Shown here piece after piece: positions 5,101 to 63,248 of a DNA stretch of 64,000 bases. This DNA is from Yuukianura sp. NJ FZ-2021 (lineage: Eukaryota), in contig CM102283.1 in NCBI GenBank assembly GCA_046563655.1, positions 1,860,001-1,924,000 of the forward strand, in the 5' to 3' direction. Position 1 is the first letter of the stretch. Every line of letters starts with the position of its first letter. The position numbers and the translations under genes were made by a program. The notes below the pieces were generated by a model. The model worked only from the letters and a program-made list of their open reading frames with translations, did no database searches and was not told the DNA's origin.

Positions 5101-6027
5101 GACGACGAGAAGCTCCGTTGCGACGCATCCGAATTGTGACGAGAGAGATTTGAGGACGGAGTAGACCAGCCGCCAAGGGCCGAGTCCGGTGAATGCGGAA
5201 TCCTCGGAAAGGAGAGATTCATCGGTGGTTGGCCGTTGGATATGGACTGAGGGAGACAAGGGCCTCCGTTGGTCGTTGCCAAAGTGGTGTTGACATTGTT
5301 ATTATTGCAGGAGCTATTATTAGCATTGAGGAGGATCTTGTTGTTATTCCCCGGATGATTCGGGGGGAGAGAGGTGGGGAGTTGGGGCGGGTGGATTGAA
5401 GTAGGTGCAGCAGTGGCAATGAGGCTAACGGTAGTGCCAGTGGGCATTGAGGAGCTTGACCTTGCATTGTTGCTGGGGTGAGTCGTGAAGTTTGAGATAC
5501 GGGAAATGCCTGAGCCTGTACTAGAGGACAGCGTGACCAATGGGCGCGTGAGAGGGTGAAGGTCAGCGGTTATGACGGAACCCAACAGGTCAAGTCCGTG
5601 GTAGTCTTCGCTGTTTCTTCTGGGCGAGTGCTTGATGTAGAATGAGTGCTGGGTCTTTGGTTTTAGTCGCTCCTCGGGTTCTTCGTCTTCGTCGTCAGCT
5701 CGGCTGATTGGTTTCGGAGAACTGAATTCAACGTCTTCATTTATAACGACTTCAACTCCGACATCGTGCTCCTAGTTTAAAAAAGAAAGATCAGGTCATA
5801 CTTTTACACTTCATTTAAGTTTGAGATTTGTTATAGAAAACGATTTTCAAACGTTTTACCTCAACTTCGTCACCTTCCTCCTCCGACAGTTCACCGTCCC
5901 ACGACATTGGCCTTGGAATGTCATGCCGAAGGCCTTCGTGGTTTCGGTGTTGCACATGATGATCTTCATCCTCCGACTGAGAAATCCTGGCAATTTCTTC
6001 GTCACATTCCGTCTCAATGTCGTCCAT
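2186..6027 (-). CDS. Hr39: Nuclear hormone receptor HR39 (FTZ-F1 beta, NR5B)
   Basis: In-frame GT-AG exons: 6027-5860, 5771-5018, 4739-4667, 4467-4332, 4217-4142, 3364-2985, 2897-2651, 2547-2393, 2269-2186. [38 protein letters not shown]1 box [15 protein letters not shown]-terminal [13 protein letters not shown] ending [12 protein letters not shown]. The start is tentative because an acceptor at ~6123 allows an upstream exon. Confidence 0.93.
3485..3596. mobile_element. Tc1/mariner-type (pogo/Tigger-like) MITE in an HR39 intron
   Basis: Perfect 18-bp TIR CCGTAAAACTTCTAATAA...TTATTAGAAGTTTTACGG, flanked by TA on both sides. Confidence 0.85.
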
Positions 6028-6326
6028 TCTCGTGAGTTTGAGGTCAATGTCGCCGTGGAGTTTGAGGTCAATGTCACCGTGGGATGATGGCGGAAGTTTT
6101 GACGGTAGGGAAAGGGCCAACCCTAGTTACATCAACATAGTTAAGTTTTAGTTTTACATAACTTTAGAAAAGTTCGTGATCACTGTCTGATTAGTTTCAC
6201 TTTAGTTAAACTTTAGAGGTCGTCTGGTGCAACTTTGAATTATGCATCAGCTGCTGGCCTGCTCACCGTCTGTAGCTAATACACTAAAACTATAATTTTA
6301 ATGGGAATCAATGAGAGTGAACTCAT

Positions 6327-6423
6327 CCAAGGTCAAGTTCAAGGTCAACTGACAGCTCAAAGTTCAGTAGCTGACCATTCACCCTCTGTCGCTCACTGTC
6401 ATATAAAACTTATCTCAAGGTCA
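6327..6423. promoter_or_regulatory. Cluster of three FTZ-F1/NR5-type sites (YCAAGGTCA) upstream of the HR39 coding start
   Basis: CCAAGGTCA at 6327, TCAAGGTCA at 6339 and 6415. Function is not demonstrated. Confidence 0.35.
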
Positions 6424-9400
6424 TAACCTTCCTCAAGAACACAACACAACGAGCTGGTTCTTGGTAAAAATCAATGCTAAATTGGAGTGCAAAAATAGCT
6501 TTTTGGGGAAATAACTGTGAAACGACGGAATGAAGAGGCGTGTCGGTGCAACTCTCATGCAATATGGCCTTCATCAAAATTTTGAATGTCGAGTTGAATT
6601 AAAAAGAGAAAGTTAATCTGAGTCACAAAAGGCAAATTTTGGAATTGATGAATCAGCGAATCAGCCTTATTCATCTGTTCCAAAAAAAACGTTTTTTGGG
6701 ACAAAGAAATGATGCAGCGCACGGTATGTCGAGGCTCGAGGGAGACATAAAAAAAAATTAGTGACTCACCTTTCCCCTTCCGTTGTTTGTTGATTTAGTT
6801 CTACTTAGAGTCCTTCAACCTGACTTCCGGTAAACGCAATTGTACTGGATGTCGGTGTCGAAAGCCGGAACGGTAACGGAAACGATACTTTGAACAAAAG
6901 GAAAGATACTTGAGTGACCAATAGTAGACTCCACTAGAACATGTGTTTAGTCACTGTCACTTACATCACTGGGGAAGATGACAAGATGAGAACGTGATTT
7001 GACCTTAGTCGATTTACGATGAACCGGGTAGTGACTAATTCTGGAATTTCTGAACAAAAGGTGGCCGTTTCGTTTCACTTTCGTTCGAATAGATTCTCGG
7101 TTCATTAGACCTAAAATAACAAATGGTTACGGTGCAACAACGATTGGATTGTAAAAAACACAAATCACTTGTTGTTCACTTTACGCTGATTGTTGATTCA
7201 TTTGTGAATTGTGATGATAAGTGAATGACGACGACGATGATGATGCTGATGAAAGGAGGACGTTGACTTGACTTTTGTCCCTTCACAACAGTTTGCACTT
7301 AACACTCGCTTGTCTTGTACTGTGCAGCAACACTTCAACAAAAGATGCCAATTAAACTTTAGTTGGGTTGGTTTGGTTATATGCTCAATCAGAAATGATA
7401 GTCTTGTGAGAGTGACCTTGTCCTTGACGACAGCTTTGTCCTAGAACCCGACTTCATGTTCCTTGTTGCCTTGCTCTTGACTCGTCACAATCGCACTTAA
7501 CTTTCCGTAAACTGTCAATTGTCAAACCACTTTGACGACAACTGAGCAGGGAGGGAGGCTGCTGCTGTGTTGTTGCTGTCTGTAAGTTCTGGTTTGTTGT
7601 TAAGTCGTGTAGCACATCAAGAAGAACCTCCTCTTCCGTAGTGTTAATTATCCTTGGCTTAATCCTATTTGAAAGATGATTGTTGAGGTTATTGTTCACT
7701 GTGAGACATTTTGGGGCTGAATAAATAGAGGGCATAGCTCTAAAGGCTAGCCTCTGTTGTCGTTGCGTACCTGATGATGGGATAAAGTATTATCCCTGAC
7801 TTTGGTGGCTGGACTGGATGGATTTTGTTGCGGGTAGTACAGAGTGTACCACCGTCGCTTTCGTGTAGGACGATAGTTAGAACAGGGGAAATCGCGGTGA
7901 TCGTTGTGGATAGAACTTAAACTGCCATATCCGACTGCCAACAGCCCAATGTCCTTTGCCTGGCCCTGGCAATGAAGGTGTCTGTGCCATTTGTTCCACT
8001 CCTGCTTAAAAAGATAGGGAGTTGTTATAAGTTTCCAAACCCAAAAGGTGTCCACAACCCTCTTTGTTCGTGGATCATGGTTTTACTTACTACTTGGATA
8101 TTGCAGACGAATACATGGCCAGATATAACCTCATCCGTTCGTGCCTGGCTCTGCGATGAATGATGCGAAGTGTTTCGCTATGACTTTCGTCTGCCCCTTC
8201 TTTCCTTGTCTCTGTCTCAGTAACCTTGCATTCATTCCATCCGAAACTCAGTCTAAAAAACAAAGAAAAGTACAACCAAAACAATCTCCAATGTCTATTC
8301 TTTCAAAAACAGTACTTACGAACCGTGTTGATGTGCATTTCACCTTGCCTTATGATTGGACGTCATCCTTAACTAATGCTGGCCTGAGATTAGACAAGGA
8401 CATCCTAAGAAACTTAAACGGAAAATATTTTATGATCTTTACGATAAAGACTGTTTACTTTTTACAGAAAGTTTACCTATGTCATATGTCAGGTAAGTAA
8501 CACAAGGTCAGCATGTCGAGGTCAACAAGTCGAGGTCAATGATCAGGTCGTCGTCAGCCGAATCCGAAATCTATCCAGTTGTAAATCAGAAAACGAAAAA
8601 ACGATGAAACGAAACGATCCTCCCGGTGGAATCCAGAAAGCGAAAGCAAGAACCGATTTTTAATTGTTGAGGAGCAAAAAAGTTTGAAAACAAAAACAAC
8701 AAATGTGTTCCCGCGTTTTTATTGATTCGCAATAAAATTTAACGTCCCTAACTTTTAGTTTACGTTGTTAATTGAACCAGTTACTTTTCATTATTTAACG
8801 TAAGCTGCAATTAACGTTCTAATTAAAACGATTAACGACCAAACTAATTAGTTTGAGTAAATGGCGACTATTAAATCCAAAAAACAGGCGCCAAATAGTT
8901 AAATCATATAAAGTAAAATGTGTCTGTCTGTTTGTCTGTCACCAGCCAAGGTTTGTGCAGAAATGACCTTGACCTTGACGTCTGCTAACCGCAAAGCTTC
9001 ATCATGACTTTTTAAGAAAAAGTTTTCGTTTACTGCACTTTGAACATTTCTAACACTTTGGCTTTGTGAACTTTGGGAGTTGAAATGTGACCTCATAAGG
9101 GTGCTTAAAATCAAAACCAAAAGAAGATCAAGAAGAAGAATGTCGTTATATTTTTAGAACCTCCATAATAAATTGTAATTGGACTCTTTATGTCTTGAAC
9201 ATTCAAACTTTCCCGCCCGCCCACGCACGCTTCTTTCTGAATGTGATCTTGTGACTACTTTGTCTCTTCGTCTGGATCTTCCTGGAGCAGGGTACCTTCA
9301 GCATTAAAGTGTCAAATGGAAATAGTGCTATGGATGTTATAAAGTTCTCGGTTGGCAGTGTGCGTGGGACGGTGGACATGTTGACTTGTTGAAAAGTTGC

Positions 9401-12400
9401 CAAATCTCTCCACGGTCTACGACAAGCACTTACTTCCTTTTATGCCAATGTCACCAGACGCTGCTGCACCATCACATTTTATTCCATCAGACAAAAACCT
9501 AACACCCACTGTTTCCTCCCATAAAGCAGCCAACTTCAGTTTTCCAAGGTCACGAAGGTCAACTTTCGCTTTTCAAAAAGGAACGTGTACTATCACGCTA
9601 ATTTCCAGCGCCATCTACTGGCTTCTGCTTGTTTTTCTCTCCGCGGGAAACGTCTTAAAACGTTTTGCAAAAGAGTGCAACGTTTGATCTAAATTTTAAA
9701 ACGTTTTGAAAGCGTTTCGCCAGCCTGCAAAAGCCTGACAAGGATTGTATCGTTTTGCGAGAAAAAAAAAGCTTCAAAAAAAAATTTTTTTTTTAACTTT
9801 TGGCAAAATTGTTCGAAAAAATTGCGCTTTTTCCTGAAAGAATTTTGGAATTCCACCACAATGCAGCATTCCAGTAATAATGTCGTCGTTTTCCCATCAA
9901 CATATTTAAAAAAAATAAAAAATTTATGAGTTATCTTACCGCATACACGCGTCTAATTTTCATCCAAAGCTGTTAATAATTTTTAGTAAAAAAAAATTCA
10001 AACAAAAATTTCTTCTGGATTATTTTTAAGTTAAGAATTCTGAATTTTTTTCAGAAGATGTTGTGTTAGGTTAGGAAATGTTGAAGTTACAACGCATAAG
10101 AAGAGTTGGACTTGAGACATTGCGCATGTCCGTTGACCATGAAAAGATACAAGGTTGTTGAGTTAAGTTTTAGAGATAGGTTTGGGTTAAAGTGGCGAAT
10201 AATTTGGGAAGAGGAAGGGAGATTCCCGTTAATTGTGTGATGATGTGCCATAAAGTTTAAACTGTGCAGAATATTAGCACACTCACTTCAAGTGGTTTTG
10301 GTGTGCTAACTGGGAGGGAAGCACCATTTCATTAGCAAGTTCTGTATGCACAGTATACCAGGGACACACGGAGTGACATTGACATTGGGGGAGGAGCTAC
10401 AGAAAGAGGTCAATGACCCGTTACCTCCTTCACTCATAGTTAGTGCACGGCAAACTTTCAAACTTTGCCTCCAAAGTCAACTTCTGCAACGGGCTCTCAG
10501 AGTCATGGCCGGACGAACTGAAAAATTTTGGCACCCACGACTGCCAAATTTCCAAATTAAAAAAGCCAATTTCGAAAAAAGAGGAAAAAACAATTTAGAA
10601 GACCGAAAAACGTCAATTTTAAGCAGAAGTTGAAAAAAATGCGAAAACTTTAATTTCCTTCATGGGATTGTTTTTGCAGAAAAATTTAAATTCTACGCGC
10701 GTCTGAAAAAGTTGAAAGACAGACAGCTTGGCAACTGTTTTTTTTTCGTCGGTCGCACAAAAACGATTTTATTCAAAGCTGTTTTTTGCGCCAAAATTTT
10801 TTGAAACCTTATCACGCAAAGGTTGTCAAAGGTCAAGGTCACGACTATAATAACTTTAATTACTTTGACTTTGTTTCTTTCATGAGCTGCAAAATTTCAA
10901 AAAAGTTTTTGCAAACTGTTCAACCGTCATGAAAATTAATTTGCAAAACAGAAGACATACGTATGCAAAATTTATTTGCAAAAGCCTACCCCGTTATTTT
11001 CGCACATGAGAATAAATGTGATGACTGACGGGCACGGTAGCGTCTTTTTCCCCGTTAGAAATAAGTCTCAAATGCAAAGTCAACTTTGTGCAAAATTATT
11101 TGCACAATACTTTGCCTAACCCAAGATTTGCAAAATTTTTGCAAATTTATTGGCTTCATTCATAAACTGCCAAATTGCTACAGGAAAAAAAAAAGAATTG
11201 CTGTCAGGGGATGAATGAATCACTTTTCCGAAGTTTGCAAAAAATTTCCCTCCGTATTTGCACCAATTAATAACTGGGATTTGCAATATTGCAAAAATTG
11301 CAACTTCAAAAAACTTGCAACCGAAATTTTGAAAAAAAGATTTATAACTTTCATAAAGCAGAACCTGTTGTTAAAATGAGAACTCTGCAAAAAATGTTCG
11401 GTGTTTTGCGAAACAAAATTGAATGAAGAAAGTTTACGAACCATGGTGTATAATTATTTTAAATTTTGTGAAATGAATCCAATTTCAAACAATTTTCTGG
11501 AGCTGAATCATCTTTTCCAATTTCATTCATAAATCAAATCTTAATTTCGCCAATTCCCGATTTTTTGTGCCATTTTCAAAAATCCTGAGCCTGAGGCCTC
11601 CATCCCTATAAAAGTTTATTGAATCTTTCAATCCTGGTTGAAACTTTTATTTTTGCAAAATTGTGAAGTTTATCTTTGCACAATTGATGATCCCTTGTTC
11701 CTTTTTCAAGGTCAAAATTCACAATCTCTCAGCGGAGGTCCTTTGCAGCTTCATTAGAGAAACCTTGTGAAACAAAGAAATTCGAAGAAATCTTTGTTTG
11801 TTTGCAAAAAATTTCGCAGATTGCAAAAAATTTGACCTTACCTGGTGCAGGAGGTACTTTAGGGTACTTTTCAGAATCAGCATTTTTGCAACATCGCGAA
11901 AATTTAGGAGCGCCTACACGTTTATTTAGTTTTTTTTTGTTTTTGCAAATTAATTGAATCGACAATTTCCTTATTACGTCAATTCCATATTTTATTTGCG
12001 CCAATTACACAACAACCATTTAAAATCTCTGAGGCGTTGCAAAAAAAAAATTTTTGCAAAAACTTTTCGCATGTGTGAAATTTAATTAAGGGTGAAAACA
12101 ATTGGCGTTTAACAATGCTTTTTTTTTAAGTTACAAGCTTGTTCCTCAACAAAGTTTAACGAAGTTCAACAAACTTTTTTTCACACAAAAATTTAAAATT
12201 TTGAAAAAAAAAGTAAAGAATTAAAACTGGTTCATTTTTATTTTGTCGTTTTTATACCACTCAAAGCCAGATTGTTTCCACCAAGAATTTGACATTTGAC
12301 CTCAAACTTTAAACAACTCAAAAAACTAAACTAAAAATTGTAAGTTACGACATTTTTGCGACGTAATCATCAAATTAAAAATTCAAATATCTCCCGCCAC

Positions 12401-57787: not shown

Positions 57788-60700
57788 ATGAAGCTGGAAA
57801 CTCATTGTTTACTATGCCAAAAGCTGTCGTTACAACTAGCAAATTCTCAGGATCCGACAACTAAAGGCTGGAAGAAGGCATGCGCTGATTCCATTTGCAG
57901 TTCACTTCGAATAACTGGCAAGCCGATTTGCTCTGTTTGGTTCAAACGGGCAACGTACTGCGAGGACTGCTACCAAACCTTTTGTGACTTTGAATTTATT
58001 GAAAAATCGATCCAGCGTCTTCAAAAACGTCTTCAGGAGATCACTGAAACTGCAGAACAATTGATACTGAAAAATGTCGAAGATTTGGGTTCCGGGGAGG
58101 ATAGGACGGGCGAAGAATACTTTGAGGCTGTGAAATTCATTGGCCGTGAATTGAGTCGAAGAGGGAAAAATACTTTTGACGATGACATTGACGATGGGGG
58201 TATCGGCTTTCGATCGGCAGTATTGCAATCAGATGAGATTGAAACAAATTATGAAGTTAAGACTGAAGTCGACTGTGACCCGTGCGACGTTATTTACAAT
58301 GATAATACTGATTACTTTCCTGTTTCTGCATTCAGTGAAACAGAATTTCGCAGCCAGTCTGGATCTGATCCGGAGGAAGATCCGCTTGGAGGACATAGCG
58401 GGCCAGATTCTCCGATTAATCAGGAACAAGTATCAGAAAGACATCCTCCCTCAATTTCAAAGAGAAGTACCAGACAAGGTTCGCGATACCTTCGGAATTC
58501 TTCGGGACCTAATACAACTTCTGATGCTGCATCAATCTCCGCAGCATCCTCCATGTCAATGGCAATGCCAATACAATCTACTTTAGGAGGACGTTATCGT
58601 CGGATTGCTCCTGCGCCATTTCCACGCGTTCCTTCACCTTCACCACCACAAGAAGTTCCATCAAAACCAACACCTTGTAAATTGGATCTTGAACGAAGTA
58701 TGGCACGACGACATCGACGTTGGAAATGGTACAGCCGTAGAGCTCAGCGCAGGACTAATACCGACGCTCCAAAAATAATCAACTCTGCTGCTATTACATC
58801 AACAGCACTAATCACAAACGTTGCTCCACGTCCACCTATAGCACCAGTCTTAGCTCCTACACCAGCACCAATTACGAACTTAGCTCCAATTATGCCACCA
58901 CTCACACAAGTTGCTCCAAGTAGAAGAAGAACACCAATCACAATAGGTCCAGCCAAGACACCAGTGTACAGTACATCTGCAGCGAGCGCCAGCGTATTAA
59001 ATTCATTACCACTTCGTCGAATTGCCCCAGCTCCATCTCCACTGCGATTCCGTTTCCCTCTCCCCCTCATCCCCATTGCACCAACACCTCCCCAAATTCC
59101 AGTAACTTCAACTGCCAGATCAACGTCAACTACTGTCGGACGACACCGTGATCTGGCTCCCTCCACATCCATACCGGAAACCGCGCTCTTGCCAACTCCT
59201 TCCCCAACTTCGTCGCCAATTCGCTATGTATTAGGCTCTATGATTTCTGGAAACAAGTAAGTTCAAAACCTTGACGACGTTTACGTGTAGTTAAGGCGTG
59301 TGCAAAATGTAACACATGTGCATTGTAAAATGTGAGATGTATCAATGTAAACTATTTCTGACGTACATGTACACACAAATCAAGTTTAACTTTTTCTGGT
59401 TTTAGTATACTACCATCGTTGCCGTTCTGGATGCCTGATACTTTTGGTGGAAATGTGATACGTACAAATAATCCAATGACGCAACCGCCAGCACTTATTC
59501 CCACGATACGGCCAGAAGTAATTGATATTGACATGAGCGACACTGAAGCACCAGCGGATGTTGATGTTGATCCTGCTGATTCTACCGTGCTGGATTCAAG
59601 CCCTGGAATTCGCAGTATATATTCAGCCATTACAAGCAGCACACTTCCAGCGATATCTTGTACTGTTCCTCAAGTTCTGCAAACATCGGCCGGAAAGAAA
59701 GTGAAACCTATGAAATCGAAGAAGATACGTTGCAATTATCTCAACTGCAAATACGAAACCTCTGCAAAGTTCCCTTACGTTTTAGATGCTCATGTTCAGC
59801 AAGTTCATCATGGAGGTGCAAAGCCGTTCCGTGTCTCCTACTGCAACGAAACTTTCAAGACAAGACATAATTTAAACGAACATGTCAACAGAGTCAATCG
59901 AAAACCAGTAAAACCGTCTCCAGTAGAAGTCGTTGATATTGACTTAAGTGACGGAGAGGCACCTTCCGAAACTAACGTTACGGGTTCTAAGTTAGTTAAA
60001 CTTAGAACTACTCGCCGAAAGTATTTAACAAGGAGTACGACCAAGTCAAATACTTATCCAGTTCTGCCAAAACGACCGAGAATAGAATTGAATCGACATC
60101 AGTGGAAGAGGCTATATTGCAGTTACGAAAACTGCGATTACAACACGCTGGAAAGGTTTGAGCACCTCTTAGCCGCTCATGTTCGAAAAGTTCACGAAGG
60201 AGATCAAAAGCCGTTCCATTGCTCCGATTGCACCAGAAGTTACACATCAATGGCTCGTTTGACCGACCACGTCAAAAAAGTTCACAGAGACCCAGTGATT
60301 TGCCCTTGTCCCCATTGCCCGCGTACTTTCAAATATCAAACGTCTCTTGATAACCATATGAAGTGTCGACATCCATATCCACTAAATACTGCTCGTTCTT
60401 ATCCCAAATGCAAGATATGTACGAAAATGTGTCGAGATGAAGCAGAGCTGGCAGCACATGAGGATTTACACAACGTTCCAGCTGATGGCGAAAACGTTTT
60501 GTCTTGTGTTCTCTGTACAACTAAATTCAGTTCGGACGTTGAACTGGGACGACATGTGAACAGAGTCCATGAAGATGAGTACCGGACAGTTAAGTGTCCC
60601 GACTGCGATGAATTGTTCTTCCGCAAAGAAGAGTTACGCAGTCATGTCAGAAATAACCATACCAAAAGGGATCCAAAGTTCAAATGCACAGTTGCTGGTT

Positions 60701-63248
60701 GCGATTTTGTGGGAGTAGGTCCCTCGTCTTATGCCGGTCATAAAATTTCACACTCAATTGCTAAACCGTTTAAATGCATCCGACCGAATTGTAACAAAAA
60801 GTTTAAGCATCAGCGAGGTCTGGACATACATACGCAAGTTCATGCGATGAAGGATAAACTGATTGAGCCCAAATTCACATGCTCCGTTTGTTCCAGAGGT
60901 AAGCAAAACTCTGACTTATTTTTGAAAAGTAAAAACTAAAATTTTGAATTGTTTTGAAATAGGTTTCATCAGGCAGGATTCGTTGGTTACGCATATGCAA
61001 AGTCACAACAACTTAAGGCCATTTCTATGTGACCAATGTCCAATGGCATTCAAGGCCCTTCCTTCTCTCACCAAGCATGTTTGGAGACACGCTCAACGTG
61101 CAGCTTTACACACATCTCCAGAATTTGACGCATCAGAGAATCAGGAAAGGCGTAGACAACGGAATCCAGCGGACCAAACTGCAATAATTGGTGAGTTTGT
61201 GCCAACAAAAGAATTTTTGAGTGTTTCTAATTCACCATTGACTTTGTTTCTGTTGACAGGTGACTGCTGTAAAGTCTGTGGAGACACTATGAATTTGGTT
61301 ATCGTTGGGTCTATAACGACGTGTTTCCCCTGTCGTATGTTTTTTGAGTATCATGAGACCAGCAAAACCAGCAATTCCGTTAAACTAAAGACCACTAACC
61401 GTATATGCGACAATGGAGATTGTACAATTACGACAGAGACGAGGAGTGATTGCAAAAGCTGCCGACTCAAAAAGTGTTACGCCGTAGGAATGAAAATTGA
61501 GGGTGAGTTTAAAAAAGTGAGGTCACTCCCCGCTGTAAATTTAACATTTTCTAATATATTCTATAAATGGTTTATAACGCAAACTCCGCAATATCCAAAC
61601 TTATATTTCTTATGTCAGATTATATCAAACCCGTAACAGAAGTCAGGATATCTTACCGTCGTGGCAAATCGCGATGTAAGAATGATAAGCCAAAGCCACG
61701 GTCCGGAAATTCTGAAACACGAGAGGAGTGTCCAATTTGCTTTTCCAAAAGTAGTCGAATTGGAGACGTCTTTGGTGCGACGGCGTGCCACAATTGTAGA
61801 AGTTTCTTTGCAAAAGCGACACAGCTTAACCGTGTGTTCAAATGTGCTTTCGACAACAACTGCCAGTTCACTCCAGAACGAGACGTCTATTGTGCAAGTT
61901 GTCGTATGCAAAAATGCATTGCTGCTGGAATGAAGACTGAGGGTAATCAACTAAATTAAAAAAAAAGTTCAAACAAATATTTCTTTCTATTTTCAGATCT
62001 TTTACTAACCTTTTTGATTACTTTTCTAGCGGTAGGAGTCAATTCTGTGTCACTAGTGACAGGAAAATGTCCTGTTTGTGAAAGGGATATGGAATTGAAA
62101 AACTTGTTTGGTGTCCTCGCATGTGCAAATTGTGGTCGCAATTTCTGGATGGCTGTTCGTCTCAACCGGCCGAAGAGTTGTCCAAAAGAAGTGCCATGCA
62201 GGAATCTACGGTCTTGTCATGGATGTCGCTGGACAAAGTTCGTACAAGCTGGATTTAAGCCCGAATGTAAGTGTATTTGCATCCTATAAAGTAAAAATGA
62301 GGAGTAAAGATTAATTTTTTGAAAATTTTCTGACTGGTATTTTTTGTAATTCAGTGGTGAATTTGCCAAAGGGAGTAATGGAACCTGTTCAAACAAGCTA
62401 TACTTGTGCAGTATGTGGTGATGCTGGCAAGCATCGGTGCCGTGACGGACGTGTGTGTGGCAGTTGTAGTTTATTTTTCAGTAAAATTACTGTAAAGGAG
62501 GCTGTGCCGGTTTGTACCAAAGGCGGGAACTGTCCCATTGACATGCTCACAAGAGTGGACTGCAAGGCCTGTCGTCTTCAAAAGTGCTACCAAGTCGGCA
62601 TGCGCCGAAGTAAAGTTGTCGTAAAAACATTTTTAAAGTAGAACTTTCCAAATAGTGTAAATTGATTGGTTGTTTGTGGTGTGTACAGCAAAGGCCTATA
62701 CGAGACGAACGGAACCGGACGGGTCTGTGCAAAATTGTAAAATCTGCGGTGACGTTTCCATTGGAAGTCGCTATGGAGTCCAATCCTGTGAATCTTGTTC
62801 CTTCTTTTTTATGAAGGGAAGTGGTAGGGACTTTGGAGACTGTATGGTGACACACGGAAACTGCGAAATTACGAAGGAAACACGCACGAAATGTCAACCT
62901 TGTCGTATGGCCAAATGTGTTGAGCAGGGCATGAAGAAAGGTCAGATTTAAAAAAAATGAAACTAACAGAATATCACAGTGTTTTGATTACGTTAATTGT
63001 TTTTTTTCCTAGCTCCTGAGCGAAGACGACTAGGACGAATTCCTAAAGATTCAGAAGAGGCTCGTGCCTTAAGGAAATTAATCAGCAACGCTGCAGCGGA
63101 ACCTGCTGAAGCTGCTTCCGCTGAAGCTCAAAATACTGCTGAAAATGCTGATGAGCCGCCGCAGTTTGCTCTGGAATTGGTTTCAGTTCCACATGAAAGC
63201 CCCGCCGGAACCACCTACTCATTTTCGTTGCCCGCAAATGAGTGGTAG
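57788..63248 (+). CDS. ~1578-aa chimeric transcription factor: ZAD-like C4 domain, Pro-rich region, 12 C2H2 fingers (one degenerate), five tandem nuclear-receptor-type DBDs, no LBD
   Basis: Nine exons join in one frame with GT-AG introns: 57788-59256, 59406-60898, 60963-61190, 61260-61502, 61619-61942, 62030-62266, 62355-62609, 62689-62940, 63013-63248 (4737 nt). Each DBD has CxxC...CxxC..F and C..C...CxxCR..K...G(M/F). Confidence 0.85.

Follow-up and report, generated by a model that had tools for sequence, protein, structure and literature searches.

The DNA-binding domain (DBD) of nuclear receptors is usually viewed as a conserved module, single or at most double, that is tied to six-base half-sites. 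Arthropods also have DBD-only receptors, namely knirps, knirps-related and eagle (NR0A). Nuclear receptors with two DBDs (2DBD-NRs) carry tandem DBDs in one chain, with P-boxes that differ between the domains, a Grip box placed behind the last DBD, as well as a ligand-binding domain (Wu and LoVerde 2023, PMC10497141). ZAD-C2H2 proteins, such as Drosophila M1BP, Serendipity-delta, Grauzone and Pita (PDB 7po9, 7poh, 1pzw, 7pok), join a four-cysteine helical N-terminus through a long linker to an array of C2H2 fingers. Here we analysed a 64,000-nucleotide (nt) stretch of the genome of Yuukianura sp. NJ FZ-2021 (GCA_046563655.1, contig CM102283.1, positions 1,860,001 to 1,924,000, forward strand; hereafter the window), in which a predicted gene places five receptor DBDs behind a ZAD-like domain and a C2H2 array.

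With moderate confidence, we explain this gene by an old capture and tandem amplification of a receptor DBD. The resulting chromatin protein would have many fingers and work without a ligand, probably as a dimer, and its DBD array would act as a unit. A phase-1 intron of a lineage-specific ZAD-like/C2H2 gene would have received a receptor DBD exon together with the extension exon behind it; the source would be an NR1D/E-type (E75/E78-like) receptor, with its ligand-binding domain left behind. The DBD exon, already lying between phase-1 introns, would have been copied in tandem long ago, and the copies, freed from the standard hormone response element, would have kept the zinc fold while rewriting the recognition helix. 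The protein would be ligand-independent and ZAD-dimerised, with the C2H2 array as its main DNA anchor; the five weak DBDs would jointly engage an extended non-canonical site, each like one bead in a polydactyl array.

The predicted DBD array and similar systems

The 1,578-amino-acid (aa) model begins with a ZAD-like domain and runs through a linker rich in Pro and Thr and 11 C2H2 patterns to the five DBDs, behind which lies a tail of 77 aa. Its parts are as follows, in positions of the window.

57788-63248 (+): predicted gene, nine exons joined into a stop-free frame encoding 1,578 aa; a prediction from sequence only
57788-58111 (+): ZAD-like N-terminal domain (CxxC...CxxC and a long amphipathic helix), based on relatives in the genome and an AlphaFold model
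57788-59256 (+): predicted coding exon 1, with the ZAD-like domain, an acidic stretch and a long Pro/Thr-rich linker; a phase-0 intron follows
59406-60898 (+): predicted exon 2, with the bulk of the C2H2 array (Pfam zf-C2H2) and an internal duplication of about 137 aa; a phase-1 intron follows
60963-61190 (+): predicted exon 3, 228 nt, phase 1/1, with the final C2H2 fingers (Pfam zf-C2H2) and a linker
61191-61259 (+): intron before DBD1, 69 nt, phase 1, in frame and without a stop; retention would add 23 aa
61260-61502 (+): DBD exon 1, 243 nt, P-box CFPCRMFF, with a 9-residue insertion past the recognition helix (zf-C4, 44.7 bits)
61619-61942 (+): DBD exon 2, 324 nt, P-box CHNCRSFF, with a basic 35-aa leader (zf-C4, 51.5 bits)
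62030-62266 (+): DBD exon 3, 237 nt, P-box CANCGRNF, the most altered copy (zf-C4, 23.2 bits)
62355-62609 (+): DBD exon 4, 255 nt, P-box CGSCSLFF, donor one codon before the canonical position (zf-C4, 53.4 bits)
62689-62940 (+): DBD exon 5, 252 nt, P-box CESCSFFF, nearest to canonical, donor one codon early (zf-C4, 64.5 bits)
63013-63248 (+): predicted last coding exon, with a Grip-box-like extension (RLGRIPK) resembling the E78-like and E75-like extensions, an Ala/Glu-rich tail and the stop

All five DBD exons score above the Pfam zf-C4 (PF00105) cut-off of 21.1 bits. A six-frame scan of the window found six C4 receptor-type motifs, five of them on the plus strand between 61268 and 62810 and the sixth in an HR39-like gene on the minus strand (4463-4389; P-box CESCKGFF). 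An earlier note on this DNA had described five DBD exons whose lengths are all multiples of three, flanked by phase-1 introns and bearing five different non-canonical P-boxes, versus CESCKGFF in the HR39-like gene. Our analysis agrees on every one of these points, with boundaries that are predicted: each exon carries one DBD, and the six introns (GT..AG; 69, 116, 87, 88, 79 and 72 nt) join them in one stop-free frame. For DBD exons 1-4, alternative AG acceptors in the same frame exist, among them 61640 for exon 2 and 61997 for exon 3, so the exact exon lengths could shift by whole codons. The exon 5 donor, gtcaga, is the weakest by eye. In DBD3, the second finger is short by four residues and the ninth cysteine is gone. 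Across the 98.7-Mb genome, zf-C4 gave 39 matches, four at this locus (copy 3 was not among them); the other loci, as far as they were translated from 30 fetched, are canonical receptors. The receptor names used here (E75-, E78-, HR3-, FTZ-F1-like and so on) are presumptive labels based on sequence motifs, and the receptor set is arthropod-like and, by impression, springtail-like. As for a ligand-binding domain, neither Pfam nor the PDB gave a match for the last exon, which closes with a stop, and the open frames of at least 70 aa in the next 10 kb, read by eye and not scanned with ligand-domain profiles, were P450-like or LINE-like (LINE, long interspersed nuclear element).

The gene shares with 2DBD-NRs the tandem DBDs in one chain, the P-boxes differing between domains and the Grip box behind the last DBD, and nematode group C of that family likewise has highly divergent P-boxes (Wu and LoVerde 2023, PMC10497141). 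However, a 2DBD-NR has two DBDs and a ligand-binding domain, whereas here five DBDs stand behind ZAD-like and C2H2 domains. The fixed P-box pairs of groups A and B (EACKK-EGCKG, LPCKS-EGCKK and EACKS-EGCKG) match none of the five copies, and the available text lists no arthropod member (PMC10497141). Membership was rejected on the number of DBDs, the ligand-binding domain that was not found and the unmatched P-box pairs; the Grip box agreed. Knirps-type receptors also lack a ligand-binding domain, but they contain one DBD bearing a near-canonical P-box and Arg161 (RXR numbering) and, in this genome, no intron past the terminal Gly-Met.

Unnamed database proteins also resemble the gene in architecture. 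A five-domain profile was searched over 1.84 billion representative proteins and the best 150 were analysed; multi-DBD proteins ranked at the top, with a profile that favours divergent domains. Among these 150, at least four complete DBDs were present in 18 proteins, three in 18, two in 93 and one in 14, and seven had no DBD that could be parsed by pattern. All P-boxes differ within the protein in each of the 18 with at least four DBDs. The multi-DBD examples named below carry three to seven DBDs, usually without a Pfam ligand-binding domain and with mostly non-canonical, differing P-boxes, as here; none is orthologous to this gene, the best identity per domain being 30-47%. Thirty of the 150 were looked up, nine with a species: four from Caenorhabditis brenneri, one from C. 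briggsae, two from mites, one from a stick insect and one from a cephalopod. The named proteins with at least four DBDs come from Caenorhabditis and a cephalopod. Multi-DBD examples are C. brenneri CAL2035663.1, CAL2034589.1 and CAL2034586.1, C. briggsae CBG19506, Dinothrombium tinctorium RWS01804.1, Bacillus rossius XP_063216918.1 and Argonauta hians GAB1611135.1; some database entries may be fused gene predictions, and one bears an aminotransferase domain. A C2H2 pattern occurs in 2 of 152 proteins. CBG19506 combines at least three divergent receptor DBDs with C2H2 fingers, as here, but with the fingers behind the DBDs, an independent fusion of reversed order. The B. rossius protein has three DBDs, two of them with near-canonical P-boxes, each followed by an extension-like stretch, and no ligand-binding domain, and is possibly an early stage of such arrays. 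In the literature searched, arrays of at least three receptor DBDs or such a fusion were not found described, only two-DBD receptors, with supplementary sequence sets outside its scope; files S1 and S2 of PMC10497141 could contain nematode sequences with more than two DBDs. Mentions of "four DBDs" or "three DBD" referred to dimers, two genes or domain classes.

The five-copy array on a ZAD/C2H2 protein, together with the at least 18 proteins that have four or more DBDs and have likewise lost helix residues, suggests an overlooked, recurrent route to DNA readers or scaffolds. More tentatively, and with doubts of our own, receptor DBDs may repeatedly (in nematodes, mites, insects, a cephalopod and this animal) have been turned into polydactyl arrays of three to seven domains with free-running helices, a counterpart of the C2H2 and KRAB/ZAD arrays whose targets, for example transposons or satellites, are long and change quickly. 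The gene described here would then be a hybrid in which the two kinds of array meet under a ZAD; given its symmetric exons, the domain beside the Grip box may be picked by splicing.

Intron phase, donor and age of the copies

The symmetry of the DBD exons appears mostly inherited. A phase-1 GT donor stands at the third codon past the terminal Gly-Met in 15 of the 20 canonical receptor DBD ends of this genome. DBD exons 1-3 end exactly at this place and exons 4 and 5 one codon earlier. With a phase-1 intron frequency of about 0.3, six successive phase-1 introns would be rare if independent (about 0.3^6). They are not independent, because the donors of all five DBD exons coincide with the inherited position of the receptor intron or precede it by one codon; given phase-1 donors and an open frame, the acceptors are forced to phase 1 as well. 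The sole independent condition is that the host intron of entry was phase 1, which any in-frame capture would need. The phase-1 donor of the C2H2 exon at 60963-61190 is the putative landing site of the receptor module. Canonical DBDs without an internal intron are a minority in this genome (4 of 19); a 1/1 exon of 228 nt already holds the whole HR3-like DBD, and the FTZ-F1-like DBD probably has a similar arrangement. Exon symmetry thus accounts for the ease with which the module could enter the gene and multiply there and, taken alone, is ordinary. Since it is mostly inherited from the ancestral receptor intron, it was rejected as evidence for exon skipping.

The last exon suggests what was captured. 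It opens with RRRLGRIPK, and RLGRIP lies nine residues past the terminal Gly-Met of DBD5, resembling the Grip-box consensus RXGRZP (PMC10497141), with X being Leu here and not Phe, Arg or Gly. This motif occurs once in the 127,996 six-frame positions of the window. When the first 26 residues of this exon were compared with four extensions of this genome, the E78-like extension scored 37 (2 of 2000 shuffles as high), the E75-like 34 (6 of 2000), the HR3-like 22 (82 of 2000) and the FTZ-F1-like 18 (1269 of 2000). An extension of the E75/E78-like type, R-[FY]-G-R-[VI]-P-K, in the last exon suggests that the captured piece was a DBD with its extension, probably from an NR1D/E-type (E75/E78-like) receptor. 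E75 and E78 (NR1D/NR1E) of this genome also have a phase-1 intron after the DBD and a next exon that opens with R-x-G-R-[VI]-P-K; they differ in having an intron-split DBD, the canonical P-box CEGCKG and one copy of the domain.

Pairwise identity among the five copies is 24-48%. Of 218 residues that are identical between copies, 102 (0.47) also use the same codon; codon usage predicts 0.42, which puts synonymous sites close to saturation. No likeness among the introns was seen; together with the near-random codon agreement, this argues for old duplications. A recent duplication was rejected, as DNA-level repeats between DBD exons are only short and lie over conserved codons. The copies share some features pairwise: DBD4 and DBD5 the shifted donor, DBD2 and DBD3 a helix-flanking pattern. 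The DBD tree, whose 19 canonical rows leave out the ERR-like and seven-up-like DBDs, does not resolve the donor; the copies have very long branches, of 3.4-10 changes per column, where the median is 0.3. DBD1 finds its best canonical match in a knirps-like gene (47%). Exon shuffling, tandem duplication and helix divergence, as the earlier note had proposed, fit the locus; a common origin of the five copies is neither shown nor rejected (p value of the approximately unbiased test, p-AU, 0.275).

Fold, recognition helix and splicing

The receptor fold has been kept. All zinc-ligand cysteines are present (40 of 40 across the five DBDs), with altered spacing in four copies; all five retain the Arg and the Lys that follow the eighth cysteine, and no stop or frameshift interrupts the 1,311 nt of DBD exons, whose splice sites are intact. 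The DBD3 model (pLDDT 80.0; only copy 3 was folded) resembles solved receptor DBDs at a TM-score of about 0.6-0.7, and a structure search with it gave 69 matches in the PDB (E<=0.001), of which every listed one is a receptor DBD; the folding alignment included canonical DBDs, which favours such an outcome. A pseudogene was rejected on the open frame, the cysteines and the fold. The earlier note had allowed that the domains might be neutrally decaying, and the features kept even in DBD3 speak against this. Which residues of the helix are required for DNA binding by a receptor DBD could readily be tested on the five natural variants.

Several observations weigh against the capture and amplification of a still DNA-reading array. 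The 1,578-aa gene model is a prediction, and our searches found no orthologue of the gene. The Grip-box motif was seen first and tested afterwards. In this genome, introns interrupt the DBDs of the E75-like and E78-like genes, so an E75/E78 donor requires an intron loss, and the intact 1/1 DBD exon is found in the HR3-like and probably the FTZ-F1-like gene. The five copies group in 0% of bootstrap trees (monophyly is not rejected), and for four of the five the best score is reached with a canonical DBD and not with a sister copy. A further point concerns DNA contact. In RXR numbering, positions 153, 156, 160 and 161 are turned towards the major groove (PMC3908500, PMC10297449). Of the residues at these positions, the copies keep Glu153 in 1 of 5, Lys/Arg156 in 2 of 5, and Lys160 and Arg161 in none, whereas canonical DBDs of this genome keep Glu153 in 18 of 19, Lys156 in 15, Lys160 in 18 and Arg161 in all 19. 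Mean net charge is +4.8 in the copies versus +9.5 in canonical DBDs, with every copy still net positive. With these basic contact residues lost, single domains may bind DNA weakly or not at all, and the losses in helix and charge may mean no DNA binding whatever. C. elegans receptors with divergent helices bind new motifs, helix identity predicts the motif poorly, and binding arrays gave motifs for only 27 of 135 nematode receptor DBDs (PMC4434323). Divergence of the recognition helix, as claimed in the earlier note, fits these data; to call it a new specificity code is to pass over the loss of basic DNA-contact residues in all five copies. The same trend is seen among the 150 listed proteins, where Arg161 is kept in 24 of 86 domains of proteins with at least four DBDs, 21 of 54 with three and 166 of 186 with two.

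These losses lend some weight to a reading that shares the origin proposed above and holds that the DBDs no longer read DNA and act as zinc-stabilised protein- or RNA-binding modules, a scaffold or decoy for receptor partners, tethered to chromatin by the C2H2 array. Lys160 and Arg161 are lost in all five, the His-Tyr-Gly backbone motif is intact in none, and charge is about halved while structural residues are kept; moreover, one GATA finger in Drosophila Serpent works via cofactor binding (PMC8844375). Nevertheless, three copies have Lys at 161, all are net positive, and a Grip-box-like minor-groove element is retained behind the array; the P-box differing in every copy, here and in 18 of 18 arrays, is compatible with both readings. 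We consider this explanation possible but doubtful. Decay of the array as a relaxed by-product of unequal crossing-over with no selected function would account for the long branches, the indels in several copies, a DBD3 barely above the Pfam cut-off, and a single-copy gene for which no orthologue was found. It is unlikely, and receives the least credence from us, given an open frame, intact splice sites and all zinc cysteines together with the retained Arg and Lys despite near-saturated synonymous sites. We also give little credit to a partly wrong gene model, in which the ZAD/C2H2 gene ends at or after DBD1 by short-intron read-through, or the copies come from several receptors. The first intron could be read through in frame without meeting a stop, retention of later introns gives short natural-looking ends, and the best canonical match differs between copies; yet six short low-GC introns with normal signals join into one frame, and the features shared pairwise by DBD4/DBD5 and DBD2/DBD3 argue against several sources. 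Five separate captures are also unlikely because so few canonical DBDs lie on a single exon.

The earlier note had further suggested that any of the symmetric exons can be skipped, which would allow combinatorial isoforms; these would differ in DNA specificity, and any cassette could in that case be joined to the extension exon. Each skip would keep the frame, and animal skipped exons are enriched for frame-preserving lengths (PMC6142364). Additionally, the extension follows DBD5 only; skipping would open it to the other copies, and it is possible that any copy could adjoin the single extension in this way. Drosophila Serpent, in which the choice of finger is made by splicing (PMC8844375), provides a precedent. 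However, skipped exons across eukaryotes are typically short, with long flanking introns and weak sites (PMC6142364), whereas the DBD exons are 237-324 nt long with low-GC introns of 69-116 nt and splice sites that look ordinary by eye. Long exons and short introns favour constitutive splicing or retention, and retention of any intron after the first would end the protein after one to five DBDs. None of the 15 pairs among the six introns showed pairing or a shared motif beyond shuffles (best 10 of 200 and 25 of 200). Combinatorial isoforms are thus not supported and appear improbable to us; judging from exon and intron structure, the gene is most likely spliced mainly as one five-domain form. 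Under the capture and amplification favoured here, this form would carry all five domains as one array.

The basic 35-aa leader of DBD exon 2 (61619-61720, plus strand; YRRGKSR) lies directly behind DBD1, where an extension would sit, and is possibly a remnant of an extension or a substitute for one.

The ZAD-like domain, the C2H2 array and the neighbourhood

The N-terminal domain is best described as ZAD-like and not as a proven ZAD. Its start codon is uncertain, the open frame opening at acceptor 57746. The genome holds 18 related stretches, itself included, on contigs C1, C2, C3, C5, C6 and C7, many of them clustered on C3, which share the pattern Trp...Ser-Leu-Cys...Tyr-CxxC...Asp-Phe. This family of at least 18 is missed by Pfam, zf-AD matching none of the ten members searched. 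The AlphaFold model has a pLDDT of 84.9. In the VIA comparison, six ZAD crystal structures stood among the top 50 rows (Z 3.9-5.3) and the top row was unrelated; Foldseek with the same model gave no match at E<=0.001, and in the Atlas cluster that the domain matched, 30% of members carry zf-AD. Like the Drosophila proteins, this gene encodes a four-cysteine helical domain at the N-terminus, then a long linker and C2H2 fingers, and it belongs to a lineage-specific family in its genome, but it differs from them in lacking a Pfam zf-AD match, in middling structural scores and in the five DBDs and receptor extension at the C-terminus. A kinship of the ZAD-like domain with the DBDs was rejected, as a profile comparison of their alignments gave a probability of 0.6% (unrelated). 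No DBD was found beside nine ZAD-like relatives examined (five of them over 10 kb); most carry C2H2 fingers.

The C2H2 array was confirmed by Pfam zf-C2H2. Within it, the internal duplication of about 137 aa (59514-60285, plus strand) contains EVIDIDMSD and EVVDIDLSD as well as two related atypical fingers; we take this hydrophobic-acidic motif to resemble SUMO-interacting motifs. The linker at 58600-59090 (plus strand) contains RRIAPAP twice and a related IPIAPTP once, possibly a short docking motif.

The searches for an orthologue all constitute weak evidence. With DBD2 against longer proteins, none of 11 candidates scored; the C2H2 exon search gave 218 matches from 3,355 candidates, the 120 listed all being generic ZNF236-type without PF00105; none of 7,324 scored with the ZAD-like alignment; and the Atlas matches listed for the C2H2 and DBD1 frame were only C2H2 or unlabelled clusters.

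Downstream of the gene, tandem cytochrome P450-like genes lie on the minus strand of contig C1 at about 1924900-1933000, and a LINE-like element with open reading frame 1 (ORF1), endonuclease and reverse transcriptase in several frames lies at about 5951-9740 of the fetched downstream stretch (L041), both read by eye. Elsewhere in the genome, what we take to be a second HR96-like receptor, with the P-box CDSCKA and an uninterrupted DBD (C7:6055867-6056076), stands beside the usual HR96-like gene.

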